This document shows, in pieces, positions 3,951 through 61,375 of a DNA stretch of 64,000 bases. The notes under the pieces are model-generated. The model saw only the letters and a program-made list of their open reading frames with translations, ran no database searches and had not been told where the DNA came from. Source of the DNA: Raja brachyura (taxonomy: Eukaryota); assembly GCA_963514005.1 (NCBI GenBank), contig OY740790.1:63488001-63552000 (forward strand). The letters run 5' to 3'. How positions within the stretch are numbered: position 1 is the first letter of the stretch; every line of letters begins with the position of its first letter. A program made the translations under genes and the position numbers.

Positions 3951-4100
<150 letters not shown>

Positions 4101-22940: not shown

Positions 22941-23067
22941 TGTTAGAGAAGGAACTGCAGATGCTGGAGAATCGAGGGTTACACAAAAAGCTGGAGAAAC
23001 TCAGCGGGTGCAGCAGCATCTAAGGAGCGAAGGAGATAGGCGACGTTTCGGGTCGAGACCCTTCTTC
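22941..23067 (-). mobile_element. Penelope terminal-repeat insertion inside the Rex1 LINE
   Basis: Flanked by the direct repeat AGATGTCTTGA (22930-22940 and 23068-23078). About 95 bp are identical by eye to 49925-50020 at the end of a Penelope element. Confidence 0.85.
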
Positions 23068-23069
23068 AG
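23042..23069 (-). ncRNA. Minimal hammerhead ribozyme core (Penelope-type), intact
   Basis: Minus strand reads CTGAAGA-A-GGGT-CTCG-ACCC-GAAA-CGTC: CUGANGA box, stem II, GAAA box, palindromic ACGU stem III and a GUC cleavage triplet. Confidence 0.65.
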
Positions 23070-23583
23070 ATGTCTTGAGGCAGGTGGGGACGACACCCTG
23101 GGCCAGTGACAGATTGAAAATGTCAGTGAGGACCAGGGATAGTTGTCCAACACATGCCCTGAGCACCCGCCCGGGGATGCCATCGGGGCCGGCAGCTTTG
23201 TGCTCATTCACCTTGCTCAGTGCGTCTTGTACAGCAGAGGTGGAGAGACTGAGGGGTTGTTCATTCGGGGGTGGATCAACTTTGATGGCTGGAATTTTGT
23301 TGTCCCGGTCAAAGCGAGCATAGAAGTGGTTTAGCTCATTAGGGAGGGTGGCGTTGTCCGGGGAGGGGGGGGGGTGTTGATTTTATGGTAGTCGGCAATG
23401 GACTTAATTGCTTGCCACATGCGCCTGGGGTCAGAGTTGTTTCGGAAATGCTCCTCAATCCGCTGTTTGTGATTGAGTTTAGCATTCCTAATTCCCTTTT
23501 TCAGATTGGCCCTGGATGAGCTGTATCCCTCATGATAGACAAAATTCCTTGAAAGGCATTAATGAACCAGATGGTTTCTTATA

Positions 23584-23870
23584 AGGCAGCGCAGTGGCGC
23601 AGCTGGTACAGCTGCTACCACATAGCTCCAGAGATCCAGGTTTGATCCTGACCTTGGGAATCTGTGCAGAGATTGCATGTTCACCTCGTGATTGTGTGGG
23701 TTTCCTCAGGGTGCTCCAGTTTCCTTCCCAAAGACATGTGGGATTGTAGGTTAGCTGGCTTCTAAATTAAGTGTCTATGAAGTGGATGCAAAAGTGGGAT
23801 AGCATAGAACTAGTGTGATGGGGTGATCGATGTCCATGTCCGAAGGGCACATTTCCATGCAGTGTCTCTA
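23584..23870 (+). mobile_element. V-SINE (HE1-like)
   Basis: A-box TGGCGCAGCTGG, B-box-like GGTTTGATCC, V-domain GTGGGTTTCCTCAGGGTGCTCCAGTTTCC. Confidence 0.8.
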
Positions 23871-25736
23871 TGAAACAAATCTGAACAATTCTCGACTCGA
23901 AACGTCACCTAGTCCTTCTCTCCAGAAATGCTGCCTGTCCTGCTGAGTTACTCCAGCTTTGTGTTTATCTCTGGTAGTTTCATGATTAGTGTGACTGAGA
24001 GTAGCTTTATTTTCAGACATGATTAATTTGATTTAAATTTCCCAGCTGCCATGGTTAAATTTAAACTCATCCCTGAAACAGCAATTGATAAATCTGGCTG
24101 TTGGTGGAGCAACTTAATCAGTTTGCCATCATAGCCCCAAGCGTACTTTCAAACCACCAACTGATTTCCTCCACAAAGTGCTGGAGGAACTTAGCGGGTC
24201 AGGTAGCATCCGTGGAGGGAATGGACAGGCGACATTTTAGAACAGGACCTGTTTTTCAACCAGAGACTGAAGAAGGATCCCGATCCAAAATGTCGCCTTT
24301 CCATTCCCTCCACAGTTGCTTCCTGACCCATTGAGTTCCTCCAGCACTTTGTGTTTTGCTCAAAATTTCACCATCCATAATTTCTTACGTCACCACATAA
24401 ATGTACATCCACAAAATACCCATGTTCCTTACAAAAAGTCAATGAATTAAAATATTTCTATTAATAAACATGTGATGCGTTCTGCCGTTAAATACTAATG
24501 ATTCACAAATTAGGGTTCTGTTCCCTGGAAGTTAGAAGTCGAGAGATGATTTAATTAATGCCTTAAACATTTAAAAAAAAAAGGAATTGATGAGGGGAAC
24601 TGCGAAAAACTAGGTCACTAGAGGGCCTGGTCTAAAAGTTACAGCCAAGTCCTTTGGTGTGCAGGTGGGAAAGACGTCATTACCGAGTAAGAAACAGAAG
24701 TTCTACTTTATACAAATGACAACTGATGCAAAATCAATCATTAATTGTATGGCAGATATTGAGAGGCTTTTGTTAAACAAAGAAAATCTAGGATATGGTG
24801 CACAAATGGGCATAAGTTTGATCATTGATCAGGAGCCGAACATTTAAAAATGTTCCTAAATCTGCATCACATTGATTATGCAGTTTTCTATTTGTGATTA
24901 AACTTTCAACCTCACAGTTTGTTATCTTCTGCCCAGAGCCAACACTTTGAAACTGAAATTTAGATTGCATGGACAAAACTACTTAAGAATTCAAGTATAT
25001 TTCTGAATATCTTTAAAATAAAATTAAACTGCTTCTGTGAGTTCCTTTTGCTCAAAGCAAAATGCAAATGCAGTACTAATGATACCCTAATGAATGTATT
25101 TATATAAAAAGCCATTTCATTTCATTTCCATGACTGATTTATCTCTGATGGTTATTAGGTCATTTACAAATTAGGACGTTTGATGCCAAAATGCACTCCA
25201 GTTCGCAAAATAATAATTGTACATTTTATTTCATACTTGGGATGTTTTTTCATGAAATCCTGAAATATTACAGAAAGGAATGAAATGTGACAGGAGGCAA
25301 TGAAGTCATTGGCATGCACCAAGATCTCTATGACGAGATACTAAAAGTGATTTACATTTTTACTGTTGACCAGCAAAGGTGTGGGCCCTTCAGCCCATCT
25401 ATATTAATTCCATTTGCCTAACTGGGCCTGCGTCAGTCTACGCCTTGACTATTTACATTCCTGTCAAAATGTCTCTTTAAATTTAGACAGTAAATTAAAT
25501 ACTGTATTCAATTCCAACACTTCCTTTGGCAGCGAGTTCCAGATATCAACCACTAAAAAAAAATCCTTTTAAAAATCCTTCCTATCATCTTAAAACAATG
25601 TCTTGATTTTGAAATCCCTACAATGGGAACTTGATTCTATCTACCCTTTTATATACCTTGATCAGGTTACCTCTCAATCTCCAGCAAGAATAAACCCAGA
25701 CTATCCAATCTCTCCCTGTAACTCAAGTTTTCGAAT

Positions 25737-26390
25737 GGGCCTGTCCCACTTCGATGATTTCTCAGGCGACTGCCGGCGACTGTCAAGTCGTAGTCAGTTG
25801 CTGAAAATCCAGCGACTGGAACGGCAACTGTCAGAGTGGAACACACAAACACACACACATCGCTTCCTTCACCAGCCAGTTATGCAGGCGGGAGACAGGG
25901 CTAGCAGGGGGAGCACTGTCTGGGTGAAATTCACATGGTTCAAAGCCAATGTGATAGAGACACACACCACAATGAGCAGGAAGGTTGGCGCTGTAATTAA
26001 GTCGGTGAAAGCACAATGTACAGGAAGGGTCAATTCCTTTAAAAGAGGGGGGGAGAGGTGGGAGAAGGGGTGGGGAGGAGTAGAGACATCTTTTAAGAAG
26101 CCAGGGATACACAGCTGTGAAGCTCAGCGGACATTAACATTACCGGTGGGTTATCCTTGGTTATGAAAACTGCTGTTAACATTTTTTTTCCCCCAATGAG
26201 CCAGTGAAATTCACCGGTCAGCACCGGCGACAACCCACGATCTCCTGGCAACCCACTACCACTGTACCTACGGCTACTCTCCATGGCAGCTTCATTCTGG
26301 TCGCCGCTAATTTTTCAACGTTGAAAAATTAGCGGCAACAAGAATGCAGGAACTATTCACAACCATGAAAGCGACTCCCCAGCAACCACC
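25737..26390 (+). mobile_element. Truncated Harbinger-like non-autonomous DNA element
   Basis: Begins GGGCCTGTCCCACTT, the same terminus as the MITE at 28051. Internal GGCGAC repeats; no right TIR seen. Confidence 0.55.
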
Positions 26391-26767
26391 TGGACAAGGC
26401 TGGAGTAATTCAGTGGGATAGGCAGCATTTCTGGAGAATAAGAAAAGGTGACATTTCAGGTCATAACACTTCATAAGACCGAGGAATACTCCAAGTGTAG
26501 TCCAATCAGTGTTCTGTAAAAAAGTTGCAACATGACGTCCCATATTTCAATTCCCATGCCTCAATCTAAGGTGGCAAAAGCAGGCCTTATGCCTCCTTCA
26601 CTAACCTATCTACCCATAATCAAAGATAGACACAAAATGCTCGAGTAACTCACTCGTGTGAAGAAGGGTCTCGACCAGAAACATCACCAATTTCTTCTCT
26701 CCAGAGATGCTGCCTGTCCCACTGAGTTACTCCAGCATTTTATGTCTATCTTCGATTTAAACCAGCA

Positions 26768-27249
26768 TGATTCCTGGGATGTCAGGACTTTCATATGAGG
26801 AAAGATTGGATAGACTCGGCTTGTACTCGCTGGAATTTAGAAGATTGAGGGGGGATCTTATAGAAACTTACAAAATTCTTAAGGGGTTGGACAAGCTAGA
26901 TGCTGGAAGATTGTTCCCGATGTTGGGGGAGTCCAGAACAAGGGGTCACAGTCTAAGGATAAGGGGGAATTCCTTTAGGACCGAAATGAGGAAAACATTC
27001 TTTACACAGAGAGTCGTGAGTCTCTGGAATTCTCTGCCACAGAAGGTAGTTGAGGCCAGTTCATTGGCTATATTTAAGAGGGCGTTAGATGTGGCACTTG
27101 TGGCTAAAGGGATCAGGGGGTATGGAGAGAAGGCAGGTACAGGATACTGAGTTGGATGATCAGCCATGATCACATTGAATGGCGGTGCAGGCTCGAAGGG
27201 CTGAATGGCATACTCCTGCACCTATTTTCTATGTTTCTATGTTTCTATG
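26768..27249 (+). mobile_element. CR1 3' end inserted into a Penelope terminal repeat
   Basis: ORF 26767..27150 is the CR1 ORF2 C-terminus, with a (TTTCTATG)3 tail. It splits AAACCAGCAT|...|TGCAGTTC. Confidence 0.92.
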
Positions 27250-28050
27250 TGCAGTTCTTTCCAGCACATTTTATATACCCACAATGTTACTTTCAGGGAA
27301 TCCTTATAAACATTTCTCAACACATGACGATTTAATGTGCATCTCTTATTCTTGTTTAACTTGCCAATAAGCATCACTTTGCACATGGGATTAAATTCCA
27401 TCTGCCACAAACAATTGATTTGTATCCTTTGGTGTTAAGACAACCCTCCTCGCTATTCACAACACCAATTTTTGCGTCATCTGCAATCTTTCTAGTCAAA
27501 TATCCTGCTCACATTCATGTCATTAATATATATCCCAAACAGGGGACCCAGTACCATTCCCCACCATACAGCACTGATTATTGACTTCCAATGAGAAATG
27601 CATCTTTCCACTACTACCCTCTGCCTTTTATCACCATGCCAACATAAATTAACCATTTTTGTCAGGATTCCGTGTGCCTTGCCCTTCTGGACCAGCCAAC
27701 CATGCGGGACTTGTCAAATGACTTTCTAAAATCTATATAGACAACCTGTACCACTCCTAGCCCTTATCGATTTTTATTGAGTTATCCCCACACAAAGCCA
27801 GACTGACAATTCCCAATCAGCCTCTGCTTTTCCAAATATACTTGTTTGGTACCTTGGTATTCAGTGGCTGAAAAAACTGCCGCTCATTTTAATATCTAAG
27901 GACATTGCTGTGGATTTAAACATATTCTTTAAAAATGCAATAATATTGGCAATAAATTAATAGGAAAAAAAGGAGAGTTCACCATACCCAACATAACAGA
28001 AAATACTGAAAGACACAGCGAACCCAACGGCAACTTAAATGAGAGTGTAA

Positions 28051-28266
28051 AGGACCTGTCCCACTTGCGTGTCCTTGGCACGCAAATTACGCGACCTCGT
28101 GGTCTGAGCCCCAGCCTGAGCCCCAGGCTGAGCTCAGCGATCGTTTGCCTGCTTCTGCTGCTGTTCCAGGTGAGACATTACGTCGCACCAGGATGCCCGT
28201 GCACCTCAACGCGACCACGAGGTTGCGTAATTTGCGTGCCAAGGACACGTAAGTGGGACAGGCCCT
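28051..28266. mobile_element. Harbinger/PIF-type MITE
   Basis: 54-bp TIRs (AGGACCTGTCCCACTT... / ...AAGTGGGACAGGCCCT) with 3 mismatches. TAA TSD at 28048-28050 and 28267-28269. Confidence 0.85.
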
Positions 28267-28734
28267 TAAGTGTGAACAAAAAAGTACAAAATTTCCCCAA
28301 GTTACAACAGCGATAGCGCTTCAAGAAGTGCCCCACATGTTGTCAATCAACATGAGCATCCCGAAGCTCTGAAAGGCACTCAGCAAATGCAAGCTTTTAT
28401 CCTCTTTGCATGAATTACCAAAGTATGTAGTAACATAATAATTAAGCTCCTGGACAAGTCTCCAGAGGCTTGTATTATAGATCTATAGCCACGTCCTCAA
28501 ATTCCACCAAGGCATCTGGGGATTTTAAATCAAAACTAATAGCAGTCACAAAACTTCCAGATTCTTCTAAAAAAATGAATTTCACTGATGCTCTTTGTGA
28601 AAGGAAAGCTCCCTTCCTGACCTAAAATGAACTGCAGACTCACAACTGATGTGGAATCTTCCATCCTCTTAAACAGTCAAATATGCTATTGGATTGTATG
28701 GTCAGTGAGGGCTAGACAGTAAATAACGCCTTAA

Positions 28735-29565
28735 TGATAGGAGTAGAATTAGGTCATTCAACCCATCAACTACTCCACCATTCAATCATGGCTGATCTAT
28801 CTCTCCCTCCTAATCTCATTCTCCTGCCTTCTCCCCATAACCTCTGAAACCAGTACTAATCAAAAAATCATCATCTTTGCCCTCTACAGCCTTCTGTGGC
28901 AAATAATTCCACAGATTCACCACCCTCTGACTAAAAATATTTCACCTTATCTCCTTCCTAAAATAAAATTCCTTTAATTCCGAAGCTATGACCTCTAGTC
29001 CTAAACTCTCCCACTAGTAGAAACATCCTCTCCACATCCACTCTATCCAAGCCTTTCACTATTCCATATGTTTCAATGAGGTCCCCCTCATTCTTCTAAA
29101 CTCCAGCGAGTACAGGCCCAGTGCCAACAGACGTTCATCATAGGTTAACCTCCTCATTCCTGGGATCATTCTTGTAAACCTCCTCTGCACCCTCTCCAGA
29201 GCCAACACATCCTTCCTCAGATATGGTGCCCAGAATTGCTCGCAATATTCAAAATGCTGCCTTATCAGCGTCTTATAGAGCTACAACATTACATCCCTGC
29301 TTTTTGTATACTAGCCCTCTTGAAATAAATACTAGCATTCAGTTTGTGTTCTTTATTACCGATTCGACTTGCAGATTAACTTTTTGGAAATCCTGCACCA
29401 GCACTCAAGTCCCTTTGCACCTCAGATTTGTGGATTCTCCCCATTTAGGAAATAGTCTATGCCTTTATTCCTACTACCAAAATGCATGACTCCACACTGT
29501 GCTACACTATATTCATTCTGCCACTTCTCTGCCCATACTCCCAACCTGTCCAAGTCCTACTGCAG
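28735..29565 (-). mobile_element. CR1-type LINE 3' fragment
   Basis: Same 3' UTR as the copy at 2345; degenerate ORF2 C-terminus. Confidence 0.85.
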
Positions 29566-30046
29566 CACCCTTAAGTCGGCAACCAGATTGCATGGAGCAT
29601 TACAGCGAGGAGAAGCTGAAGTACGAGCTCCCATGAGCTCCACAGGAACACACGCTCGGAACGCCATTCCATTTGCATTTGGCATGTGAGAAATTCTTAA
29701 GAAAATTGGACCTAAGAACCTGCTGCAGAATTTTAAGTAGGATTATTTCTCTATTAGAACTGTTAATATGTTGATCACTGATATTACAATATTGTACTGC
29801 ACATTTTAATATGGTCACCTTGATTATCGTTTAACTATAAACAATGCAGTATTTTATTTAGCTTTGAGAAAAAATATCCATTGAATTACTGCACACAGAA
29901 TAAAACATGACCCCACTAGTCAGCAACAGCCAGATACATTGCATATGAAGCTGACAAAGCTCTCTTTAGATACGTATTTTAAATGTGGCCCACGAGAAAG
30001 TACTGCCTTTTTAAATGTTAAAAGACCTTTTGGTTATCATTTCCTA

Positions 30047-30217
<171 letters not shown>

Positions 30218-30676
30218 TTAAAAACTAAATACCTTTTACTTTAAACTAATGCAGTGATCATTAGAGTTAGGCAGCTAATTTGTACAAATAAAAAATAAAA
30301 ACTCAATTGCTTATTAATTTATTCAAGGAAAATGATTGACTGACCAATCCAGCATTTAAAAAGGTCCAGCCTTACATCATTAATCTGACATGCAACACCC
30401 AAGCAAAGAGTGCCCCTTCCCATCCCACTCAAGTGAGAAAGAGCTGATACGAAAATAATCAGAAAACATTTAATAGTAGTTTTTTTAAAGCACCTTGAAG
30501 ATAAGAGTACACATGATTTTCTCTTCTGCTGTTACATCAACTAATTCCACTCTAAAGGAGCAAATTTTGTTTTCTTTGTTTGATTGCGTCAAGTTATATC
30601 AATATATTGGTGCAAAATACATAGCTTGGTTCATTTACTCACTTCATGCTGGTTTGTACAATGGAGAACTGCATAC

Positions 30677-30794
30677 CTGTGCACTTGAAAAACTTTGTTC
30701 TCAACATGAAGAGTTATATCGGAACAACAACCTTCGTGGTAGAGGGACAAAAGGTCAGCACCTAAAGTGGAGGCTGGCTCTGGTGTGGGATCAT
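30677..30794 (-). CDS. BTBD8: BTBD8-family coding exon 4, start of second BTB domain
   Basis: ttgactag| ... |gtatgc, 118 nt. Peptide DDPTPEPASTLGADLLSLYHEGCCSDITLHVENKVFQVHR. Confidence 0.93.
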
Positions 30795-44000: not shown

Positions 44001-46274
44001 GATGCTATATATTTGAATAAGGTTACTCAAACTATTTAGTCTCTCTTCCCATGAATTAGCCTAGTCAATTTGCACTGCCTTCAATGTTACTATCTTTTTT
44101 TCAGTTAAAGAGACCAAAAATATGCACCATTCCAGGCGAGGTCTCACCAACACCCTATTCAATTAAATTCATGTGTGTTTAATTGTCATATGAACCGGGA
44201 TTGGATCAATGATGTTGTTGCAGATTTACAGGCACATTAATGAAACATAAATAACTATAATAAACAATAATGTAATACATTTTCAGTTATGCATGGTAAC
44301 CAGTCCATAACAGCCAACAGCCTCTCTAGCACAAAAAAGGCTCAGGAAAATATCACAGCTATAACCATAACCAAAGAAAACATCACCTAAGATAGTTTGC
44401 TCAGTGTATTCTCCCCCATTAGATTATTCATCCCCTCCACCGGCAACGCTGCGTTTACAGTAAGTACACCCAGTTCAGCAAGTAAATATCTTGCAGCCGG
44501 ATGGCTGTTTAAGTATCACTTGGACATGGTAAATATACTTTCTCTTAATACTGATGCCAGGATAATAATCTCATATAAACATAAAGTAGTAAAAAATCGC
44601 AAATGCTGAATAACGTCTTTTCTGTCACTAGGATATGATCCAATATCCAGAGACCGAATACGAACTGAAGTTTCCAACCTATTGAGCAAGAAATACTAAG
44701 CAGCTGTACTAATACAAATTAATTCCTCAGAATGTTGTGAGCCACACTAAAGCAATAATGTTAAAACATGGATTATAAAAATAAATCCCTTTATTTACTA
44801 CGATAATCAGGAGAAGTGCTTGTCATTTAATCTGTTAGAAACCATACAAAGGGTGATGAAATAGCACCATGCAAGCCACAGTCACCCCTCTAACTGTTCA
44901 AGTGCAGCTCCCAGAGATTCAATGAATGCATACCATTTGGGGAATAATTTCATCACATATATATTGGGAGCTATGATGTCTAATACACATTTGTCTGCTA
45001 ACCCCAAAATGGATGGTGGGATGATGGACTCTTATCCAGCCTGCGTTTTCACCTAATCGCAGGAGCCCGGGCATAAAACACTTGCATTACAGGATTATGG
45101 CTTCATTTGGCTACAGTGAGACTCAGCCAGGGCAAGTAAACATTATGCATTTGTAGAATACAGTACTAGTGCATTACTGTGTGCTCACTAATCAAATATT
45201 TAAATGTCGGCACTCAATACGGAAGTTGACAACAAAACTGGTTTCATGCCATATTGATTGTGTTATATTCTGAAGGAGTCCTTAAAGAATATATGCATCA
45301 AGAGCGGCAAATATATAGACAAACAGAAAATAGACAAATAAAGCAAGTTAAAATTTCCAAAAGAACTTACAATTAGGATGGAGACTCAAGGCCTCTAGTT
45401 TCAATAGCAATGACACAGCAAATATTAAATGTTCCTCAATTAATGTATTGAGGTGGAGTCTTAGTAATAGGAACGTATAAAACAATTGTGCGTCTTGCAA
45501 TTCCCAAACCTCTTGACATTATTGTACATGACTCCAAAATGCCCTCAAGTTTGAGCCTGCATTATCTACTCCAAAACAAGTGCCTTTTGAACAACTATTT
45601 TGTCTTATCAATGAATGTCAGATTAAAGGGAAGAGTCAGAAAAGTCAGTGAATGGCAGATTAAAGGGGGAGCAGAAACCACTTAAAATGCTACTTCTGCT
45701 TGGGATGTATTTCATCCTACAAGCAGTTGTGGTCTACTGAAAGCTGAAAAGTTAAATGTATTATGTTTAAGTAGTAGATGTCCATAGACAACAGCCTGAT
45801 AATTATTGTGAACACTTAATTTAATCACCACTAATAATTTGTAATTGCCAATATCTTGGTTAAGTGATAGTAATTTTCGAAGAGAGGTGATAATGTCTTA
45901 AATATTACATTTTCTGCCTTTAACCCTGATAAGATTCCCCTTTTACCAAATTGACCACCTTCATACACAAACATTTGCTTTACAGCATTAGCAACATTCA
46001 GATTTAATCAGTGCTATAGTATAAACCACTGTGGTATGTCCCAAGGTTGCCAAGAAACCTATACAAATGTAATTTATTCAGATAATTAATGTAACTGATT
46101 GGGTTGGGAAGGGTTAACTCATGTCTGCCATGGGAAAGAATGTTCATTGCTGTGAATTTGAAAGTCTGTTGTTTTGAGTCCAATTGGGAAACAATGTGAA
46201 GTAGCATTTATGATTAGTTTAAATCAAATCTCCCACACACACCAACACATACCACAACTGTTGGAAACACTTAC

Positions 46275-46478
46275 TGCAAGAAGTATTTAAACTGTGAAGG
46301 CTTGAAACTCTCCACAGGGATGATTGATGGACAGTTCTCAGCCTCTTCTTTCAAGTGCTTTTCAGAAACTCTCGAAAAAAACTCTGGAACCCTTGCAAGC
46401 AGCACGGCTCTGTGGGCCTTGAAGACAGCTGCACCCACATGGAATGTGACATCTGCTTGAGTTCCTTCTACAAGAAGC
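46275..46478 (-). CDS. BTBD8: BTBD8-family coding exon 2, first BTB domain
   Basis: cccaaaag| ... |gtaagt, 204 nt. Peptide LLVEGTQADVTFHVGAAVFKAHRAVLLARVPEFF...FKYFLQ carries the BTB signature. Not in the ORF track. Confidence 0.93.
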
Positions 46479-49243
46479 CTTTTGGGAACAAAAAACAGAC
46501 AAATTGTGCAATATTGCTTCTGGAGCTCCTTGGATTTTAAAAATATATAATTAAACAGTCAGAGTACCTATTGAAATATTATTTCTGCAATAGGTATAGT
46601 GGATGCTGTAGTATATATAATGTATAATATAGTAGAGTGTTGAACATCATACAGTTTTAAAAATTAGTGTCCCAATAACCAAGAACCAGATCCATGTATA
46701 ACCAGAATGAATTGTAAATGTTATACTATTGCATTGAGTTAATAATTCATGATTACAAGCCTTATTAATTTTATTTTTGTCTTAAACATATCTATGAAGT
46801 GCAAGATTAGCACAGACTTATTTTACTAATTGTTCATGCCTCCACCCACCCATCACCATTTTGCACACATGAACAGTCAATGAAACATCAGTGCACAATT
46901 CAAACAGCATTTAAAACTCCAAGAGAGATGTTTCATTATATGCACATCTCTCTGGAGAAATGTTTTACTGCCATATCTTAAATAAATTCATTTTCATTTG
47001 AGCCTTTAGTGAGGGGATTGTGAAATAGTGAGAAAGTATTTACAATTTGCACTTATCAGTTATTCCTTTCTCACAATACTCCTCCTCCAAAAACAAAATC
47101 TACCTTCTAGATTTAGTCAGTTTCAGAATTGACCATTCTCAACACTAATCAAACCTATCTTGGCAACTCCCATTTATCCAATTTAAACTCTCACCTGTAA
47201 GGTCATAAGTGATAGGAGCAGAATAAGGCCATTCGGCCCATCAAGTCTACTCCGCCATCCAATCATTGCTGATCTATCTCTCCTCTTAGCCACATTCACC
47301 TGCCTTCTCCTCATAACCCTCGACACCCGCATATATAGCCAACCAGAGCTAAGCAAGCTACGAGAAAAACAAATGTATTTCCAATAAGATGCAATCCACT
47401 TAGGTACAATTTGACCTATAATTCTTTAATTTCTGAATATTGGAGAAAAAAAAAATCCCTCAAAGAGACTCACTTCTAATATTTCATCCAACAGATCATT
47501 GTCTGAGATCAAATCCTCTTCATTTTCAAATTAATATTCATGGACAAACTCAAATTAATATTCCATCCATCATAAACTCATAAATCAAGACAGAAGCTCA
47601 CTACATTCAACCACAGCAGGGCATGTAATTACTTCTGCAGGCGGTATCATGGTCAGAATCTAATCAGCCAAATTTCCTTTATTTACAATAAAGCTCCAAG
47701 GACACTTGTTCCTAACAGTTGCCACGGAATAATGTCTTCCTTTCCCCGTTGTTATTTTTAGGTTTAAGTTCATTATTGTCATGTGCACCAAGGTACAATG
47801 AAAAGATATCGTGCATGCTATCCAATCATATCAGACAATACTAAATATCAATGCAATCAAGACAAACGCAAGTACAATAGCTAGCCAATGTTCACAATGA
47901 GGTAGAGGCGAATTGACTGTACACTAGCGTATAGAAGGACCGTCCAGAAGCCTGATAAGAGGGGAAGAAACTCCTACATCCTATTTTCATTATTTATTAA
48001 CAAAATACACTGGATACAAAATCTAATACATGAATGTATTCAGGCAATTTAAACAAAAGAACAACTTTTATTTAGAGTATTTTTTAAATTAATGACCTCA
48101 TGTTCATGTTCTCTCCTCTCCACAGTTCCTTGGTAACATATTGTAAATCACAGGTGAGTGGATTACTGCATCTATCCATGGTAGTTTACATACACTGCTA
48201 ATCAAGGTCACTGGATAAAGATCAGAAGCTAGATTTCTAAATCAAACACCCCAAAACCAATGTGTTGCAGTCACAACTGAAATTAACTACTTCAAAGCCT
48301 AAGGATTAAAGTTTGGTGATTACTAGCAACATCCTCATAAATCATTTTCGCATTTTTTCCAGCTAATTACATGTTTTCTATAGCAGGATGACCAAATGTA
48401 ACGATACCACTGCAAGTGCAGCCTCAACAATGTATTGTACAACTGCAACATACTGATCCAACTTCTATACTCAATACTCTGACCAATGAAAGCCAGTGTG
48501 CCAAAAGCCTTCTTCATCATCCCATGTATAAGTGCAACGCCACTATCAGTAAACTATGTACTTTGCATTCCAAGACCACTCTGCTCTAAAACACTCCTCA
48601 GGACCCTTCCATTTACTGTGCAGATCCTGTCTTGGCTTGATAACCAGGGTGGCAACAAATGACAACCTGATTGTTTCTGTGCACTAAAGACAAGAAAGGC
48701 TGACAAAGAACCTTCAACACAAAATAGTAGTTAGGGTAAAAGAACCAACAAATCCATTGCAGCCTGAATACTCCAATTGTATATAGCTTGATCTTTCTCT
48801 CTGTTTGTGTCAAGAATCTTCACTTTTGCTTGCCATTCCTCACTTTCTTTTTTCTTTCATTAGTATATTGTGGCTTGCTGGGCATGTCCCAGTAAGACAG
48901 ACTGCTCAGAATTACCTAAACATTACAACAACATTAGCACTACAGCATACAGATAAACAATTGCCTTTTTAATGATTATAACCTACTATAGACAATGGCT
49001 TTGTTCCACCCACTGCCCTACCCCACTTACTTTGCTACCTGGACTAACTTGTTTTCTTTCCTCAGTTCTGTTGAAGGATCTTTGATCTGAAATATTAACA
49101 GTTTCTCTTTCCACAGATGCTGCATGACCTGCTGAGATTTTCCTTTCTGTATTACTAAAAAAATGCTTGAAAAGATAAAAGGATGTGTATTTATATTAAA
49201 TATTTGTTGTACCAAACCCAGTTTATAGGAAGGCATCGCATAC

Positions 49244-49416
49244 CTGAGAAGGTCCTTGTTTAACTGTGAAGCCAGGGTTTCTTTCAATATCTGTCTTTCG
49301 CTTCTAACTCTGTCTTGGAAACCTTTGCTGTTTTCCAGATTGGGAACTCTCTGCACAATTCCTCCATTCCATGTTGCCATTTCCAGGTCTCTTGATTGTT
49401 GTTTATACTCATTCAT
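49244..49416 (-). CDS. BTBD8: BTBD8-family coding exon 1 (exon starts at 49430; ATG at 49416, alternative ATG at 49380)
   Basis: Acceptor ttttaaatag|, donor CAG|gtatgc. Peptide ERQILKETLASQLNKDLLR resembles human BTBD8 ERRRLKATVSEQLSQDLLR (recalled). Ends phase 2. Confidence 0.85.
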
Positions 49417-49477
49417 CTCATGGTAACCATCTATTTAAAAAAATATTAAAATGAAATTAACCAATTAAGACAATACC

Positions 49478-51840
49478 ATGTAGGAAGGAACTGCAGATGC
49501 TGGCTTAAACTGAAGATAGACACAAAAAGCTGGAGTAACTCAGCGGGACAGGCAGCATCTCTGGAGAGAAGGAATGGGTGACGTTTTTCGGGTTGGGACG
49601 CTTCTTCAGACTGGTTAGGGATAAGGGAAACGAGAGATATAGAGAGATAAAGAACAATGAATGAAATATATGCAAAAAGGTAACAATGATAAAGGAAACA
49701 GGCCATCGTTAGCTGTTAGATGTGTGAAAACAAGAAGCTAGTGTGACTTGGGTGGGGGAAGGATAGAGAGAGATGAAATGCTGGGGCTACTTGAAGATAG
49801 AGGAATCAATATTCATACCACTGGGCTGTAAGCTGCCCAAACTAATATGAGATGCTGTTCCTCCAATTTGCGTTCAGCCTCACTATGACAATGGAGGAGA
49901 CCTAGGACAGAAAGGTCTGTGTGGAGGGTTACACAAAAAGCTGGAGAAACTCAGCGGGTGCAGCAGCATCTAAGGAGCGAAGGAGATAGGCGACGTTTCG
50001 GGTCGAGACCCTTCTTCAGACTGGTCAGGGATCAGGGAAACGAGAGATATAAACAGTGATGTGGAGAGATAAGGAACAATGAGTGAAAGATATGCAAAAA
50101 AGTATTGGTGATAAAGGAAGCAGGCCATTGTGTGGAAATTGGAAGGAGAATTAAAAGTGTTTAGCAATCGGGAGATCAGGCAGGTTCAGGCAAACCGAGC
50201 GAAGATGTTCAGCAAAACGATCGCCCAGTGTACATTTGGTCTCGCCGATGTATAATAATCCACATCTTGAGCAATGGATACAGTAGACGAGGTTGGAGGT
50301 GGTGCAAATGAACCTCTGCCTAACCTGAAAGGACTGTCGGGTCCCTGGACAGAGTCGAGCGATGGAGGTAAAGGGACAGGTGTTGCATCTTCTGCAGTTG
50401 CCGGGAAGGTACCTGGGGAGGGTGTGGTTTGGGTGGGAAGGGATGAGTTAACCAAGGAGTTGCGGAGGGAACGGTCTCTGCGGTAGGCGGAAAGGGGTGG
50501 AGAAAGGAAGATGTGACTAATGTTGGGATCCCGTTGGAGGTGGCGAAAATTTCAGAGGACTATGTGTTGTATGCAACGGCCGAATGGCCTCCTCCTGCAG
50601 GCTGAATGGCCTCCTCCTGCACCTATTTTCTATGTTTCTATTTATTGATGGGGGACGATCAGCCATGATCACAATGAATGGCGGTGCTGGCTCGACGGGC
50701 TGAATGGCCTCCTCCTGCACATATTTTCTATGTTTCTCTGATGGGGCAAAAGGTAAGGACTAGGAGAACTGTCTCTGTTGTGACTAGGGGGAGGGGGAGC
50801 AAGTGCGGAGCTGTGGGGTACCGAGGAGACACGAGTGAGGATCTCATCTATGATGGCAGAGGGGAACCCCAGTTTCATAAATAAAGAGGACATCTCAGAA
50901 GTCCTGGTATGGAACACCTCATCTTGGGCGCAGATGCGGCACAGTCGGAGGAATTGGGAGTAGGGGAGTCTTTGCAGGAAGCAGGGTGGGAAAACGTGCA
51001 GTCGAGATAGTTGTGGGAGTTAGTGGGTTTGTAATAGACATCAGTCGATAGTCTATTTCCTGTGATGGAGACTGTGAGATCAAAAACGGGGAGGGAGGTG
51101 TCAGAGATAGTCCAAGTAAATGTGAGTGCAGGATGGAAATTGGTGGCAAAGTTGATGAAGTCCTTGAGTTCTGCATGGGTGCAGAAGGTAGCACCGTCAA
51201 TGTAACAGAGATAGAGTTCGGGGATCGGGCCAGTGTACGCCTGGAACAGGGATTGTTGACCATACCCTACAAAGAGGAGAACATAGCTGGGGCTCATGCA
51301 GGTGCCCATAACTATTCCTTGAACTTGGAGGAAGTGGGAGGAGTCGAAGGAGAAGCTGTTGAGGGCGAGGACCAGCTGCGCTGGGCAGAGTAGAGTGTTA
51401 GTAGAGGGAAATTGGATGGTTGTGCAGTCAAGAAAGAAACAAAGGGCTTTAAGGCTTTCCTGGTGAGGGATGAAGGTGCAGAGTCACTGAACGTCCATAG
51501 TAAAGATGAGGGAGTGGGGGCTCGGAAAGCGGAGGTATCTTGGACATAGGTTGGGAGAGATTGGACTGGGGGGGGGGGGTGGGGGTGGAATATAGTGGAG
51601 TTGAGGTATGTAGAAATCATTTCAGTGGGACAGGAGCAGGCAGAAACAATGCCAGGGCAGTTGTGTTTATGGATTTTGGGGAGAAGGTAAAACCAGGCGG
51701 TGCAGGGCTGGGAAATGATAAATTGGGAGCCGTGAAAGGCAAACAGCCAGAAGTGATGAAATCAGAAATGGTCTGTGAGATTATGGTCTGGTGTTCGTCT
51801 GTGGGATAATGGTTCAAGGATATGGAGGGGAGGTGTCTGA
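49478..51840 (-). mobile_element. Penelope-like element (RT plus GIY-YIG), degenerate, with tandem terminal repeats and a nested CR1 3' piece (about 50580-50737)
   Basis: RT peptide MGTCMSPSY...LCYIDG...FHPALTFTW...TDVYYKPTNSHNYLD. GIY-YIG peptide LVYCIHCSRCGLLYIGETK at about 50230-50290. Repeated terminal blocks at 49480-49710 and 49925-50130. Confidence 0.9.
49992..50019 (-). ncRNA. Minimal hammerhead ribozyme core in the Penelope terminal repeat, intact
   Basis: CTGAAGAAGGGTCTCGACCCGAAACGTC on the minus strand. A degenerate tandem partner lies at about 49580-49609. Confidence 0.65.
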
Positions 51841-54052: not shown

Positions 54053-54860
54053 AGAGTCATAGAATGATACAGTGTGGAAACAGGCCCTTCGGCCCAACTT
54101 GCCCACATCGGCCAACAATGCCCCAGCTACACTAATCCCACTTGCCAGTGCTTGGTCCATATCCCTCCAAACATGTCCTATCCATATACCTGTCTGTCTC
54201 TTAAACAATGGGATAGTCCCAGCCTCAACTACCTCCTCTGGCAGCTTATTCCATACACCCAACAGCACTTTGTGTGAAAGTTACCCCTCGGATTCCTATT
54301 AAATCTTTTCCCCTTCACCTTGACCCTATGCCCTCTGGTCCTCAATTCCCCTACTAAGAGACTCTGTACATCTACCTGATCTATTCCTCTCATGATTTTG
54401 TACACCTCTATAAGATTCCCCCTCATCTGCGCTCCATGGAATAGAGACACAGCCTACTCAAACTCTCCAGAGAGCTTACATAGAAAATTGGTGCAGGAGG
54501 AGGCCAATCGGCCCGTCGAGCCAGCGCCATTCATTGTGATCCTGGCGGATCATCCCCAATGAATAACCTGTGCCTGCCTTCTCCCCTTATCCCTTAATTC
54601 CACTAGCCCCTAGACCTCTATCTAACTGTCTCTTAAATCCATCCATTGGCCTCCACTGGGTGAATGCACAACTCTCTGGGTGAAAACGTTTTTTCTCACT
54701 TCAGTCTTAAATGGCTTTCCCTTTATTCTAAAACTATGGCCCCTGGTTCTGGACCTGGCCCTAATCCTGACTCCATTCCTGGCAACCTCCTCATAAATCA
54801 TTTCGAAACTCTTTCAAGCTTGACAATATATTTTCTATTACATGGTGCTCAGAACTGAAC
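54053..54860 (-). mobile_element. Nested CR1 3' fragments (two subfamilies)
   Basis: Peptides RGNLIEVYKIMRGID and VWNKLPEEVVEAGT. A second CR1 3' UTR starts at about 54478. Confidence 0.8.
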
Positions 54861-54877
54861 ATAATATTATAAATGAG

Positions 54878-55530
54878 GCTTCTTCAGACTGATATCAGGC
54901 AGTGTGGGAGTGGGGGGGGGGGGGGGGGGGGGGGAGAAGAGAAAAGAAAGGAAGAGGATGAGACAGTAGGCTTTGTGGGAGAGCTGGAAAGGGGGGGAGA
55001 AAGCAAGGGCTATCTAAAATTACAGAAGTTGGCACCTGGAACAGCGGATGCGGTAGATGAGGTTGGAGGAGGTGCAGGTGAACCTCTGCCTCACCTGGAA
55101 AGACTGATTGGGTTCTTGGATGGAGTCGAGGGCGGAGGTAAAGCGACAAGTGTAGCATTTCCTGCGGTTGCAAGGGAAAGTACCCAGGGAGGCTGTGATT
55201 TGAGTGGGAAGGGATGAATTGACCAGGGAGTTATGGAGGGAACGGCCTCTGCGGAAAGCAGAAAGGGGAGGAGATGGGAAGATGTAGCCAGTGGTACGAT
55301 CCTGTTTGAGGTGGCGAAAATGTCAGCAGATTATATGCTGTATGCGACAGCTGATGGGGTGGAAGGCGAGGACAAGGTGGACGCTGTCCTTGTTACGAGT
55401 AGGAGGAGGGGCAGTAAGAGCAGAGCTGCGGGATATAGAGGAGACCCTGGTGTGAGCCTCATCTATAACGGAAGAGGGGTACCGCCCTAGTATGGAATAC
55501 ATCCTGGGCGCAGATGCAGTGTAAATGGAA
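54878..55530 (-). mobile_element. Penelope-like element 3' fragment
   Basis: Collinear with 50280-50950; starts at CTTCTTCAGACTG. Confidence 0.8.
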
Positions 55531-55537
55531 GAAATAG

Positions 55538-56047
55538 ACGTAGACGGAGCTCCATACCAGAGCTCCAGCAGCAGCGAAGCAGCACTTCTGTGTTTGTGCT
55601 TTTTAAAAAAACATATGTTTATTTATTTTTATGTTACTGACTGTAAGGAAAATCCATTTTGTTGCCCTGCGACTCCGCCCGGCTCGGCCTGTGGACTTCG
55701 GGTGCCGCGGACTCCGGTGGGAGGTGGCTAATCTGGAGGTCCGGGCCGCTGAGAATGTTCTCCGTCGGGGTTCCATCATTCCCGGCGAGAGGGCCTGAGC
55801 ATCGGGCCGTCTGTGGCGGCGACTGCGGGTGCTCGGGAGGCACTGACCACGGGCGAACATCTGGGTAGATTGGCAGGGAGGCTGGCTGGACTATGGGTGC
55901 CGCTGTGGGGGTATGTTGTGTGTGGACTTCTGTGTTTGTGCTTTTTAAAAAAACATATGTTTATTTATTTTTATGTTACTGACTGTAAGGAAAATCCATT
56001 TTGTTGTCTCTAAAATGAGATAATGACAATAAATTGAATACAATACA
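55538..56047 (+). mobile_element. GC-rich non-autonomous retroposon with an internally duplicated tail, inserted in Penelope
   Basis: Ends TGACAATAAATTGAATACAATAC. Flanked by AAATAG on both sides. An 80-bp block occurs twice. Confidence 0.6.
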
Positions 56048-56221
56048 AAATAGGAGTAGGGGATAGAGTGCCAACCTCATCTACTCATCCGCTGTTCCAG
56101 TTGCCAACTTCTCTACTTCGGCAAGACGAAGCGCAGGATTCTCTCACGTCCTAATTAGAACAATGAAACCCTTACTTGCAGCAGCACAACAGAATATGTA
56201 AACATAGTACTCTGAAAACAA

Positions 56222-56660
56222 TGAAGGTTCACCAGACTCCTGGGATGGCAGGAATTCCATATGAAGAAAGACTGGATAGACTCAGCTTGTACTCGCTGGA
56301 ATTTAGAAGATTGAGGGGGGGATCTTATAGAGCCTTACAAAATTCTTAAGGGGTTGGACAGGCTAGATGCAGGAAGATTGTTCCCGATGTCTTTTAGGAC
56401 CGAGATGAGAAAATCATTTTTCACACAGGGAGTGGTGAATCTCTGGAACTCTCTGCCACAGAGGGTAGTTGAGGCCAGTTCATTGGCTATATTTAAGAGG
56501 GAGTTAGATGTGGCCCTTGTGGCTAAGGGGATCAGAGGGTATGGAGAGAAGGCAGGAACGAGATACTGAGTTGGATGATCAGCCATGATCATATTGAATG
56601 GCGGTGCAGGCTTGAAGGGCCGAATGGCCTACTCCTGCACCTAATTTCTATGTTTCTATG
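56222..56660 (+). mobile_element. CR1 3' end
   Basis: RTEMRKSFFTQGVVNLWNSLPQ followed by a TTTCTATG tail. Confidence 0.9.
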
Positions 56661-56821
56661 TATATATCATGTCTTGATTCTGACTGGTAACTACACACTT
56701 TGTCAGAGCACATTATCACACGTGCCATCTTAAATGACCACCTAAACTGTCATTTGGCAACGTAAAAAGCTGCCTAGGTTGCCCGGCAGGCAACAGAGAA
56801 AAAAAGTTAAGTGAGAGCCCT

Positions 56822-57145
56822 GCACACCATCCTGGCCACACACGCATCTCTCCGCTGCCATCAGGTAGAAGGTACAGGAGCCTGAAATCTGGAACATCCA
56901 GGTTCAGGAAGTTTCTTCCCCACAGCCATCAGACTATTAAACACAACTTCAAACAAACTCTGAACCATAACAGCCTATTGCACTTTATCTGTTTATTTGT
57001 GTGTGCGTGTGTATTTTATGGTATATGGACACAATGATCTGTTCCGTATTTATGCCTACAATATTCTGTTGTGCTGCAGCAAGCAAGAATTTCATTGTCC
57101 TATCTGGGACACATGACAATAAACTCTCTTGACTTGTCTTGACGC
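56822..57145 (+). mobile_element. Rex1/Babar 3' end
   Basis: Encodes LPSGRRYRSL and ends TGACAATAAACTCTCTTGACTTG. Confidence 0.75.
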
Positions 57146-57354
57146 TTGGCTTGGCTTGTTTACCATAGCACAACTGTGTGAAGTGGCTGCTAAAGTTGCT
57201 TTATAAATGCAAGACATGGATTTTTCTTTGTATGTGCTTTCATTTTTTATAATTTCCTTTCATTTCCCTGTTTAACCTAACAAATGACATTAGTAGCATA
57301 CATATGAAGCGTAATTGTGTATATATTTGCTCAGGACTGACATAACATCTTTAA

Positions 57355-58015
57355 AGGTTCACAAAAGTGCTGGAGAAACTCAGCGGGTGCAGCAGCATCT
57401 ATGGAGCGAAGGAAATAGGCAACGTTTTGGGCCAAAAACCTTCTTCAGACTGATGCCGGGTGGGGGGGCGGGAAGAAGAAAGGAAGAGGAGGAGCCGGAG
57501 GGCTGACGGAGAGCTGAGAAGGGGAGGAGACAGCAAGGGCTACTGGAAATTGGATAAGTCAATGTTCAAGCCGCTGAGATTACCCAAGCGGAATATGAGG
57601 TGCTGCTCCTCCAATTTCCGGTGGTGCTCACTCTGGCCATGGAGGAGGCCCAGGATAGAAAGGTCAGATTCGGAATGGGAGGGGGAGTTGAAGTGCTGAG
57701 CCATAGGGAGATCAGGTTGGTTAATGTGGACCGAGCGGAGGCGCAAAACGATCGCCAAGCCTACGCTTGGTCACACCGATGTAGATCAACTGACATCTAG
57801 AGCAGAGGATGCAATAGATGAGGTTGGAGGAGGTGCAGGTGAACCTCTGTCACACCTGAAACGACTGCTTGGGTCCTTGAATGGAGTCAAGGGGGGAGGT
57901 AAAGCGACAAGTGTAGCATCTCCTGCGGTTGCAAGGGAAAGTGCCTGGGGAGGGGGTGGTGCGGGTGGGAAGGGAAGAATTGACCAGGGAGTTACAGAGG
58001 GAGCAGTCTTTGCAA
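57355..58015 (-). mobile_element. Penelope-like element 3' end (GIY-YIG C-terminus plus terminal repeat)
   Basis: Peptide AQHFNSPSHSESDLSILGL...RKLEEQHLIFRLG...GLNIDLSNF. Confidence 0.88.
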
Positions 58016-59215
58016 GGTTCAGGTCACTTGCAAATCTGTTTTAGGAGTTAGTGCAATTTCCAGCATAAATTCATATTAAATCAGGAACACATTGACATAC
58101 AAAATAATGTCTGTTAACTGTCAAACTTAACTGTAAAACAATATGATTTATAAAATTCATTTTGAATCCTGACAGCATCAAGAACATCCAAGAGTGAATC
58201 ATGACAATATCTGAATGCATGCACAAAACTCAAAGTACTGGAGGAACTCAGCAGGCCGTGCAGCATCTTTGGAGGGAATGGACAGATAAAGTTGAGTCAG
58301 GACCCTTCTTCAGACCTCAGGTCACTGGGGTCCTCCAGCACTGTTTTGCTCAAGAGTACAGCATCTGCAGCATCCTGTGTCTCCATGTCTTTGTTCACAA
58401 TGTCTGTCCTATTCTTGCTCAATACACATTGCATTGAAGAAAGATTGTCATGCAAGGCATGGATAGAACAGGTGACGAATCAGACAGTTTAGGGCAGGAT
58501 TATTTGGCCTAGCATGTCTGCACCTTTTGGTCTCCAGCATAATCTCATCAAGCAGCACTATGTGCATAACCCTACAGGCCAAGTGAACACCAGGTACTTT
58601 ATAAACACGTGGGTTCCAAACCTACACACCCTGTTGACATTGGGGGGGGGGGGGGGGGGGAGACTCATCCTGCCCCCTAGTTTTGATCTCTCCACTAGGT
58701 GATACAGGTCCATTCTATTTACACTACATCAGCCCTCGTAATATTACACATCTCAATAGGTGTCCCAATAACTTCCTCGGTTTCAAATAAAATAACTCAA
58801 ACATTTTATGGTCTCCATAAAAATTCATAGATTTCCTCTGCACCCTCTTCAGTTTAATTACATCCTCCGTATAATGTGGTGACCTGGGCACAATATGCAA
58901 ACTGTAACTTAACTAGGGTCCAGTGCAATTTGTGCACAACTTTACTGCTCTTGAATGTCTCAAGAAATGACAGAAAACACCATTTAACCACCTTATTGCT
59001 CCGACCCATGATTCCAACCATCTTTCAACACAACTCTACTCTACTCTTGAATCTCTTTTTAAAAGTTTATACTTTTTTTCCACCAAACTATGAAATGCTC
59101 AGTTTTGCTAAAATCCACGTAGACACATCAAGCCTCAGTGTTACCTTCTCAATATAAATATTTCAATTGAGAAGTAGTGAATGGGGAGGGAAGAGCAGGT
59201 GCTGATTAACATTAC

Positions 59216-59520
59216 CTCAGGTCTCAGCAAAGTGCACAATCGTTTCGCTCCGGCGACTGTTCACTTGCACTCAACACTGTGTGCCCGAGGAGACGCTCGG
59301 CTGGATCAGCTCCCGAGCGGCGCGCACCTCCACTTCAGCAGCGGTGGATGTCCATATCCAGCACTACTGCAGCTGACCCGAGGACAGAATGTGTGTCTCG
59401 CCGCCCGCGCTGCTGCTGCTGCTGCTACTGCTGCTACTGCACCGGGTGGGAGAGCGCTATCTCCCCGCGCGCTCGCGCCTCTGTTCTGTTTACAACCGCC
59501 ACCCTTGGAGCTCCACTCGC
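59216..59520 (-). other. BTBD8: Putative non-coding first exon (5' UTR) of the BTBD8-family gene; 5' boundary approximate
   Basis: Lies in the CpG island and ends at a strong donor GAG|gtaat (GT at 59215-59214). If spliced to 49430, an in-frame TGA (59219-59217) precedes the junction, so the exon is non-coding. Confidence 0.65.
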
Positions 59521-59700
59521 GGCTCGCGGGCGGGTACACACGTGATTCCCCACGCCCCGTCGGCGTCACCGCACGGAACTTCCCTCACCCGACGCTATGA
59601 TGTCATAATCCGCGCTCTAAACGGACGGCGTGACGTCACAATCCGCGCTCCAACGCACGGCGGCGTGACATCACAATAGGCACCGTCGCGACGTCATGGG
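59230..59700 (-). promoter_or_regulatory. CpG-island promoter of the BTBD8-family gene
   Basis: Sharp rise in GC and CpG in non-repetitive sequence. GC box GGGCGGG at 59528, E-box CACGTG at 59539-59544, CRE TGACGTCA at 59631-59638 plus variants. Confidence 0.75.
59409..59440 (-). repeat. Interrupted (CAG)n microsatellite in the putative 5' UTR exon
   Basis: Plus strand reads GCTGCTGCTGCTGCTGCTACTGCTGCTACTGC. Confidence 0.9.
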
Positions 59701-59960
59701 GGGGGACGACAAGACGGTGGAGCTGCTGCCTCCCAGCGGCCAGGGACGCGGGTTCGATCCTGACCTCGGGTGCTGTTTTTGTGGAGTTTGCATGTTCTCC
59801 CTATCACCACGTGGGTTTCCTCCAGGTGTTCTGCTTCCCTCCCGATGCTTTGGTTTCCTCCCACATCCCAAAGACGAGCAGGTGTGTAGATTAATTGGCC
59901 TCTGTAAATTACTTCTACTTGTGTGGGAAGTGGCTGAGAAAAATGGGTTCTAACGTTGAA
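59700..59960 (+). mobile_element. V-SINE abutting the promoter
   Basis: B-box GGTTCGATCC at about 59751, then GTGGAGTTTGCATGTTCTCCC and GGTTTCCTCCCACATCCCAAAGAC. Confidence 0.8.
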
Positions 59961-60135
59961 CGAGTATAAGATAGACACAAAATGCTGGAGTAACTCAGCA
60001 AGTCAGGCACCATCTCTGGAGAAGAAGAATGAGTGAGGTTTTGGGTCGGGAACCTTCTTCAGATTGAAAGGAGACCGGGAGAGGTGAAAAGCTGGAAGTG
60101 AGAAAAGACCAGGATCAATTGAGGTCAGCCGCAAA

Positions 60136-61230
60136 TAGGGTTGCCAACTGTCCCATATTAGCTGGGACATCCCGTTTATTGGGCTAAATTGGTTTGTCCA
60201 ATATGGGACTGCCCTTGTCCCATATTTGACTGCTACTACTCAGGTCGAGAGGACTGTCGGGTCGGAGCGCCGCGTCCGGCCCTGCCTCACCCGTCCCGAC
60301 AAAGTGCAGCCCATGGAGTGCAGCAACAGCACCTTGCCCGTGGCAGCTGTCCGACCTTCGGACCTTCGCTTACCGTAGACACCACCACCCCTCCTTCTCA
60401 TGGCCGATCATCAGTTCATGAGTTGGATGGGATGCTGGACTTTGCATGCAGCAGAACACAAAGACCTGCCGGTGGGCCAGCTGAGGAGTTTTGGCCCAGG
60501 CGTCCGACTTTGCGCTCACGCAAAGTCCGGCGCCCTGGCAAAAACTCCTCAGCTGGCCCGCCGGCTGGGCTTTGTATGCAGTCCAGCACCCGGGCCAACT
60601 CATCATTCATCCAGCCACGGCCGAGTCAGTCAACGAATTGCCCCGGACTTGGTAACTGGGTTGACATCCTGTCACTTTCCGTGCATCCGTTGCACTCCTG
60701 GTTCATCGCAAAGATCAAAATTCAAAATTCGAAGTACGGTGTCTACTGAATGTGTCGATACCATCGTAACCATCGCAGCATCGTAAAGTCGAATTATCAC
60801 AAGTCGAGGAGCATGTGTACTCTGTAATCACCGGAGGGCACGCTTACAGACAGATCCTAGATCTGATACAACAGCGAGTGTGTGTGTTGCATGTGCTGTT
60901 GACGCCACGCACGAGTGATTCACCCGACATCCAATCACATGCCCCCTTATGCGCATCGGTTGTACGCTATACTTTGTCAATTCCTGCCTAAACAAAAAGT
61001 TTCCGTAATGTCTGGTGTTGTTCGGTCAGTTTGCACATGCAAATATGGATAAACCTGCAAAAAAGAAAAGACTGTGCAGCTATAACAAGCAATGGGAAGC
61101 AAAAAAGACGTGGGTTAAGCCTGTCAGTGGTGACTCGACGAAGGTCTTCTGTACCTTATGCCATCGGGAATTTGTCCCTTATTTTGACCTTTTGACCCTT
61201 ATTTGGGAATGGGATAAGTTGGCAACCCTA
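60136..61230 (+). mobile_element. hAT (Blackjack-like) internally deleted DNA transposon
   Basis: TIRs TAGGGTTGCCAAC / GTTGGCAACCCTA, subterminal TGTCCC motifs, 8-bp TSD GCCGCAAA/GCCACAAA (60128-60135 and 61231-61238). Confidence 0.88.
61045..61173 (+). pseudogene. hAT transposase N-terminal remnant (basic NLS-like patch and first half of a BED finger)
   Basis: MDKPAKKKRLCSYNKQWEAKKTWVKPVSGDSTKVFCTLCHREF shows the W...W...CxxC pattern and is joined directly to the right end of the element. Confidence 0.7.
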
Positions 61231-61347
61231 GCCACAAATAACCTCAGCCAGGGCTGTGTAGGAAGGAACTGCAGATGCTGGTTTAAAGATAGAAGATGGA
61301 CACAAAATGCTGGAGTAACTCAGCATCTCTGGTGAGAAGGAACAGGT

Positions 61348-61375
61348 GACGTTTCGGGTCGAGACCCTTCTTCAG
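61348..61375 (-). ncRNA. Minimal hammerhead ribozyme core in a solo Penelope terminal repeat, intact
   Basis: Same 28-nt core as at 23042 and 49992. Confidence 0.6.

Follow-up and report, generated by a model that had tools for sequence, protein, structure and literature searches.

Minimal hammerhead cores of a Penelope-like retrotransposon in and upstream of BTBD8 in the skate Raja brachyura

The BTBD8 locus and its hammerhead cores

A stretch of 64,000 nucleotides of Raja brachyura contig OY740790.1 (assembly GCA_963514005.1, positions 63,488,001 to 63,552,000), referred to here as the window, was analysed for hammerhead ribozyme motifs lying in and around the gene BTBD8. An identical 28-mer had been reported by the initial annotation on the minus strand at 23042-23069, 49992-50019 and 61348-61375, and the match was found to be exact at all three positions. 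Five window matches were obtained at up to 3 mismatches, compared with 0.00 in 100 shuffles. The core has boxes of the CUGANGA/GAAA type, an extra base before stem II, a G10.1-C11.1 pair and a palindromic stem III; its proposed assignment to a Penelope-like terminal repeat that carries a minimal type I hammerhead is upheld. The Rfam hammerhead covariance models gave no match to the motif, neither at the gathering score nor at E<=10. The three motifs are hammerhead cores of a recently active Penelope-like retrotransposon, carried in short dead insertions.

The host gene is BTBD8. Its BTB exon at 46274-46558 is 97% identical to the Leucoraja erinacea protein, and the BTBD8 protein maps to exons on the minus strand that start at 49416 and continue to a point about 29 kb beyond the left edge of the window. 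The splice evidence comes from contigs (X1, X2 and X3) of runs presumed to be RNA of a related organism. Contigs X1 and X3 join 59216 to 49430, and 49243 is joined to 46477, while the 2,395-nt contig X2 joins 30048 to 21002. The first exon, which is non-coding and has a GT donor, occupies 59216-59394 on the minus strand to the extent covered by contigs X1 and X3. Exon 2, with the coding start, lies at 49243-49430 (minus strand) according to the contigs and the protein map, and intron 6, removed in X2 and consistent with the exon map, at 21003-30047 (minus strand). By the contig joins, intron 1 contains the copy at 49992 and intron 6 the one at 23042, each in sense orientation; together with the exon map, the joins bear out the earlier claim that the two copies are sense-intronic. 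The copies at 61348 and 60037 are located upstream of the first exon as mapped. Relatives of the repeat across BTBD8 number 23 sense against 11 antisense, so sense copies have not been purged from the gene.

The 23042 core belongs to a young stub of 130 bp (22941-23070, minus strand) made of the core and a 101-nt tail, sense in BTBD8 intron 6. The stub starts at the core; host DNA lies 5' of it and the element's own upstream sequence is absent. Its 11-bp target-site duplication is at 22930-22940 with the partner at 23068-23078 (minus strand), and the last three bases of the duplication coincide with the core start. The insertion target was the reverse-transcriptase (RT) frame of a long interspersed nuclear element (LINE), with RVT_1 detected at 22131-22829 (E=2e-23). 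This LINE extends over 21718-23382 (minus strand) and its RT frame is largely open. The 61348 core lies in a stub of a different subfamily (61259-61376, minus strand), upstream of BTBD8 exon 1, which also starts at the core; its tail has an internal deletion and it shows a possible 6-bp target duplication.

The 49992 core is part of a young, 5'-truncated copy of about 206 bp (49926-50131, minus strand), sense in BTBD8 intron 1 and composed of 112 nt of 3' untranslated region (UTR), the core and a 65-nt tail. Its core and tail are identical to those of the 23042 copy at 97/97 positions, and an 8-bp target-site duplication was found at 49918-49925 with its partner at 50129-50136 (minus strand). 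This copy sits within the GIY-YIG-encoding part of an older Penelope-like element, frameshifted and 5'-truncated, at 49479-51820 (minus strand). The older element reads in the order RT, Cys-rich linker, GIY-YIG (E=0.002, below the cut-off), 3' UTR, broken core and tail; in the core, at about 49580-49609, stem II is interrupted by a C-C mismatch and the GAAA box is longer by two A. The segment 49560-50040, previously taken for a tandem, is thus a young copy nested in an older element, as evidenced by the 8-bp target duplication. Another decayed Penelope-like coding fragment, holding the linker and the start of GIY-YIG, is seen at 54895-55622 (minus strand) in BTBD8 intron 1.

The parent element and its distribution

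The dispersed short repeat had been proposed to be the hammerhead-bearing end of a Penelope element, and this was confirmed by the same sequence at the ends of long coding copies. Upstream of the core, the long copies continue with a pyrimidine-rich 3' UTR and then with a frame for GIY-YIG and RT. This single frame carries RT and, at its C-terminal end, GIY-YIG, both with Pfam scores under the curated cut-offs, and 974 homologues at E<=1e-50 share the two domains. With the N-terminal coding region as query, 30 loci were recovered, and several of them extend to the element 5' end. In four loci (L317, L321, L333, L340) core and tail are followed by the 5' UTR and frame. Near-full-length copies have their start codon about 135 nt beyond the GUC, with the same core and tail at the 5' end and again after the 3' UTR. 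In one long copy the frame is open for 1,018 codons, up to the locus end. A good splice-donor match overlapping the start codon of the element frame was observed at L321:205-225.

The element shows a terminal repeat at both ends, partial tandems, an inverted 5' copy and a 30-40-bp tail. These features are in accordance with the insertion unit of endonuclease-bearing Penelope-like elements (PLEs), for which the available portions of PMC8557442 and PMC3846280 give strong 5' truncation, partial tandems, a one-sided tail, an inverted 5' copy with a palindromic junction and insertion into older copies. Measured against these portions, the skate unit differs from the canonical one in no respect of kind, but very short core-anchored stubs predominate in it. 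A CX2-5CxxC linker, which marks the Neptune and Nematis clades in the accessible parts of Craig et al. 2021 (PMC8557442) and Arkhipova et al. 2013 (PMC3846280), was read between RT and endonuclease. The clade label Poseidon, assigned first, was abandoned because the linker is Cys-rich.

In 2014 Cervera and De la Pena (PMC4209133) described how the terminal repeats of metazoan PLEs contain minimal type I hammerheads. The skate motif shares with them the CUGANGA/GAAA boxes, the extra base between positions 9 and 10.1, the G10.1-C11.1 pair, the palindromic 15.2-16.2 without loop 3, the terminal-repeat site and the mostly solo, dispersed copies. Helix I has 4-5 bp in the Schistosoma families and 2 bp in D. 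virilis, compared with 2 bp in the skate, whose helix II has 4 bp; the skate copy number is far over the 4,000-9,000 given for coelacanth and Xenopus (PMC4209133). Neither skate nor shark is named in the text of that paper and its searched supplement files (one file excepted). No paper on these motifs in cartilaginous fish was found in a search that most subscription journals and repeat databases lay outside; the available part of a preprint includes one cartilaginous fish in its retrozyme survey. The class, the inverted copies, the tails and the nesting are known, and the skate case is real and ordinary in kind. As it stands this means little, being one more lineage with the known Penelope hammerhead, in which the intronic copies look inert.

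The exact 28-mer occurs 50,608 times in 2.70 Gb, that is one per 53 kb, evenly between the strands. The expectation from this total is 1.2 exact cores per 64 kb, and three in one window are ordinary in view of the genome-wide number. The initial annotation had also listed ten decayed sites, and a relative is present at 10/10. The tail-only profile revealed 31 relatives in the window (20 minus, 11 plus), among which both catalytic boxes are kept only in the three exact copies. The 28 further decayed terminal-repeat relatives are spread over 5071-60066 on both strands and include head-to-head pairs at 9713/9741, 11909/11985, 16013/16058, 24228/24297 and 52544/52584. An unbiased sample of six 100-kb blocks (600 kb), picked regardless of the motif, held 170 relatives, 13-69 per block, and by rough extrapolation from these blocks the whole genome has several hundred thousand.

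Ends of the copies and the copied RNA

The ends were analysed in 103 exact-core copies, of which 3 lie in the window and 100 within the first 4.3 Mb of contig 1. The copies carry target duplications. On the 3' side there are two fixed end points, about 65 or 101 nt after the GUC, and 76 of the 85 main-subfamily copies end at +62-72 or +99-102 nt. On the 5' side 47 of the 103 start at the core, 34 continue upstream with scattered ends and 22 have an inverted piece directly upstream. Genome-wide, 8,709 of 29,941 young cores (29%) keep the next 11 upstream bases, and about 70% of young copies start 1-4 bases before the core. The 135 copies with a tail start in the unbiased blocks were divided into 9 starting upstream, 37 at the core, 56 inverted, 22 inside the core and 11 coreless. 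The 5' junctions are often folded back or re-primed on the internal repeat of the core. The copies span the cut site, and about 1% of the young family start at it.

In the mechanism proposed, the enzyme would prime at one of two internal points and copy to the RNA 5' end. With that end just before the core, stubs of 100-135 bp would result, and priming in the 3' repeat would give the longer, variably truncated copies. A similar arrangement is found in the anole element PAc (Frangieh et al. 2024), where, in the available text of PMC11167929, the hammerhead sits at the repeat/frame junction, uncleaved RNA is the main template and two internal RT start points set a 30-40-bp tail, to which the two skate 3' ends are alike. 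The skate differs from PAc in a start codon placed about 135 nt after the cut site and not inside the ribozyme, and in a protein with a Cys-rich RT-endonuclease linker; the fixed 5' end at the core is undescribed for PAc in the same portion of PMC11167929. For this fixed end no published description was found, most subscription journals and repeat databases being outside the search. What the hammerhead does in Penelope elements is still treated as an open question in PMC8557442 and PMC11167929. In about 30,000 young, nearly identical insertions both ends of the copied RNA are preserved. These insertions point to a template that is nearly always uncut and to copying that ends just before the core, and with this family the start site and the need for cleavage can be tested directly.

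The hundreds of thousands of stubs are tentatively read as run-off copies of uncleaved RNA starting 2-4 nt before the core. If this is true, the primary transcript would carry a ribozyme with almost no stem I strand, the motif would persist in this lineage chiefly in the role of promoter and of the RNA end on which the enzyme loads, with the genome as a base-precise fossil map of the starts and stops of a vertebrate Penelope RT. The main rival keeps the same inert copies and ascribes their common 5' end to stalling or drop-off of the RT at the pyrimidine-rich 3' UTR border or at a splice-acceptor-like site. The 5' pile-up is indeed also compatible with a stall instead of an RNA end: 29% of young cores do extend upstream, the upstream sequence is a pyrimidine tract ending in CAG in every subfamily seen, and the intron of the Drosophila element ends at helix I (PMC4209133). 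The G excess before the junction, which could have been taken for a cap, arises partly from re-priming on the internal repeat. On the other side, no splice donor is present at the frame end and the short copies have no common upstream exon. The 14 copies reading into the 5' UTR start at or inside the core in 8 cases (4 each), 4 start further down and 2 upstream, and the locus L007 reaches the same 5' end twice within one insertion. A stall is considered a doubtful, though possible, origin of the common end.

Two candidate signals at this junction were rejected. The bases before it are GAGT in 2,070 copies, AAGT in 1,097 and TAGT in 639, with GGT in 3,584 and TGT in 1,609; of 30 GAGT loci, 14 are either inverted or part of a single amplified composite, and re-priming on the core's internal repeat accounts for several GGT junctions, so the G excess is no proof of a cap. 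Splicing that would complete stem I was likewise dropped, given the missing donor and shared exon. The L007 insertion (L007:1410-1870) is built of a stub in inverted orientation, a 5' repeat that continues for about 135 nt beyond the tail into the frame, some filler bases and another stub, and inside its one target duplication it records two template jumps.

The short repeat could also be a self-propagating unit, similar to a short interspersed nuclear element (SINE) or a retrozyme, amplified via ribozyme processing. Uniform size, very high copy number and target duplications agree with this, retrozymes derived from Penelope terminal repeats are reported in the available part of bioRxiv 10.64898/2026.07.22.740005, and one 66-bp tandem run of coreless tails was found in L054. 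But each stub has its own 5' junction and a sequence identical to the ends of long coding copies, the units do not start at the cut site, and the loci read contain no core-bearing tandem arrays. In the window, whose copies occur singly, inverted or nested, there are no tandem units with complete hammerheads; a tandem search across the whole genome was not made. The retrozymes without long terminal repeats, as far as the accessible portions of PMC7229834 and bioRxiv 10.64898/2026.07.22.740005 describe them, share a type I hammerhead in short dispersed vertebrate repeats, but have tandem 170-400-nt units, canonical active ribozymes and circular RNA, whereas the skate repeats represent a coding element's truncated ends and have a minimal core. 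A self-propagating unit is accordingly very unlikely. The L054 run (L054:6747-7011, minus strand) has tail units of about 66 bp from the GAAA box, without the first core half, and a 61-bp tail tandem was seen in L274-L276.

Ribozyme competence and the BTBD8 pre-mRNA

Stem I had been suspected to be about 2 bp long, and this proved right, with contiguous stems of 1, 2 and 1 bp at 23042, 49992 and 61348. The description of the copies at 23042 and 49992 as intact therefore holds for the core but fails for stem I (1 and 2 bp). A helix I of about 4-6 bp is one criterion of a minimal hammerhead, and all three window copies fall short of it. Among the 103 exact-core copies stem I is at most 2 bp in 95 and at least 4 bp in 8, the latter through junction bases, and in long copies of every subfamily seen the third stem I pair is A against C. 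In the 3,584 young copies with GGT before the core, stem I is lengthened by chance to 3-4 bp or more, and for this reason they are the best candidates for active genomic copies.

The predicted folds lack the active structure for the 23042 and 49992 copies, as monomer or dimer. The predicted pairing for these copies is at most 0.001 for the first stem I pair and at most 0.04 for stem II, and stem III pairing across the nested pair 49992/49580 is 0.0003; the 4-bp stem III duplex is worth -3.1 kcal/mol. Decay was analysed in 59 unbiased copies with a full-length core by comparing catalytic non-CpG positions with conserved tail positions. Changed cells amounted to 38/590 (6.4%) for the former and 78/1,351 (5.8%) for the latter (p=0.60). 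G12 was lost in 13/59 copies, like other CpG guanines (28/118), and all catalytic and stem III bases were retained in 22/59. The excess conservation of the boxes over their flanks, on which the initial annotation had made its own reading depend, was thus not found.

It had been suggested that the sense intronic copies cleave the BTBD8 pre-mRNA or release small or circular RNA from it, and the cutting could be by dimers, mutual, with the 49580 core or in trans. The copies at 23042 and 49992 have flawless boxes, stem II and ACGU palindrome, both are sense-intronic, and tens of thousands of identical cores are possible trans partners. Dimeric cleavage was reportedly described by Luense et al. 2017, by a review's account. 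For the published minimal Penelope hammerheads no monomer cleavage and low dimer cleavage were measured (PMC4209133), and the anole Poseidon hammerhead, in the available text of PMC11167929, requires its protein for cutting, and insertion in vitro can do without the ribozyme. Against such cutting stand the stem I of 1 and 2 bp, the very low predicted pairing, the broken 49580 core, boxes no better conserved than the flanks, and the splicing of both introns in the related-species contigs. From the sequence, cleavage of the BTBD8 pre-mRNA appears unlikely, and dimeric cutting with release of small or circular RNA very unlikely. An active ribozyme fold is not expected of the intronic copies, because stem I has 1-2 bp, no stem III partner lies nearby and no element protein is present; the cores are likely to be inactive passengers in the pre-mRNA, and inserted cores would decay neutrally. 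That the three motifs lie in dead insertions from target-primed copying of uncleaved RNA, inactive in BTBD8 pre-mRNA, is judged highly probable on these sequence data.

Several observations weigh against this reading. The free positions N7 and the extra A changed in 16/118 cells, significantly more than the catalytic positions (p=0.013). The copy filter favours matches to the first core bases, which bears on this comparison, and the greater change at free positions fits selection on source elements and not on inserted copies. A short stem I alone is no proof of a dead source motif, because helix I of the D. virilis Penelope element is also 2 bp (PMC4209133). The spliced contigs come from a related organism, whose genome may be without these insertions. 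The pattern matches for starts at +1, -1 and +2 of the cut site number 314, 174 and 277, and true 5' ends were called by script in 16/30, 7/15 and 4/15 loci, too few for a claim of a peak; with repeats removed by eye the cut-site starts are about 12/30, compared with 4/15 and 0-2/15. Cut-site starts up to about 3-fold over their neighbours give a weak hint of some cutting of the element RNA. A cleavage footprint at the cut site was rejected as a finding, the sampled loci (15-30 per position) being insufficient for a peak.

Some further repeats were observed. A composite of about 500 bp has a GC-rich core with short inverted ends, flanked by two young stubs in convergent orientation. It is present on contig 1 at L069:4726-5264 and in L094, L101, L107, L114, L115 and L214, and in 5/30 loci sampled; it is an amplified unit, with paired matches about 465 bp apart, and may represent host DNA mobilised between two terminal repeats. 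The window also holds further LINE fragments, for example at 13671-15051 and 26761-27150, which we take to be CR1/L2-like.

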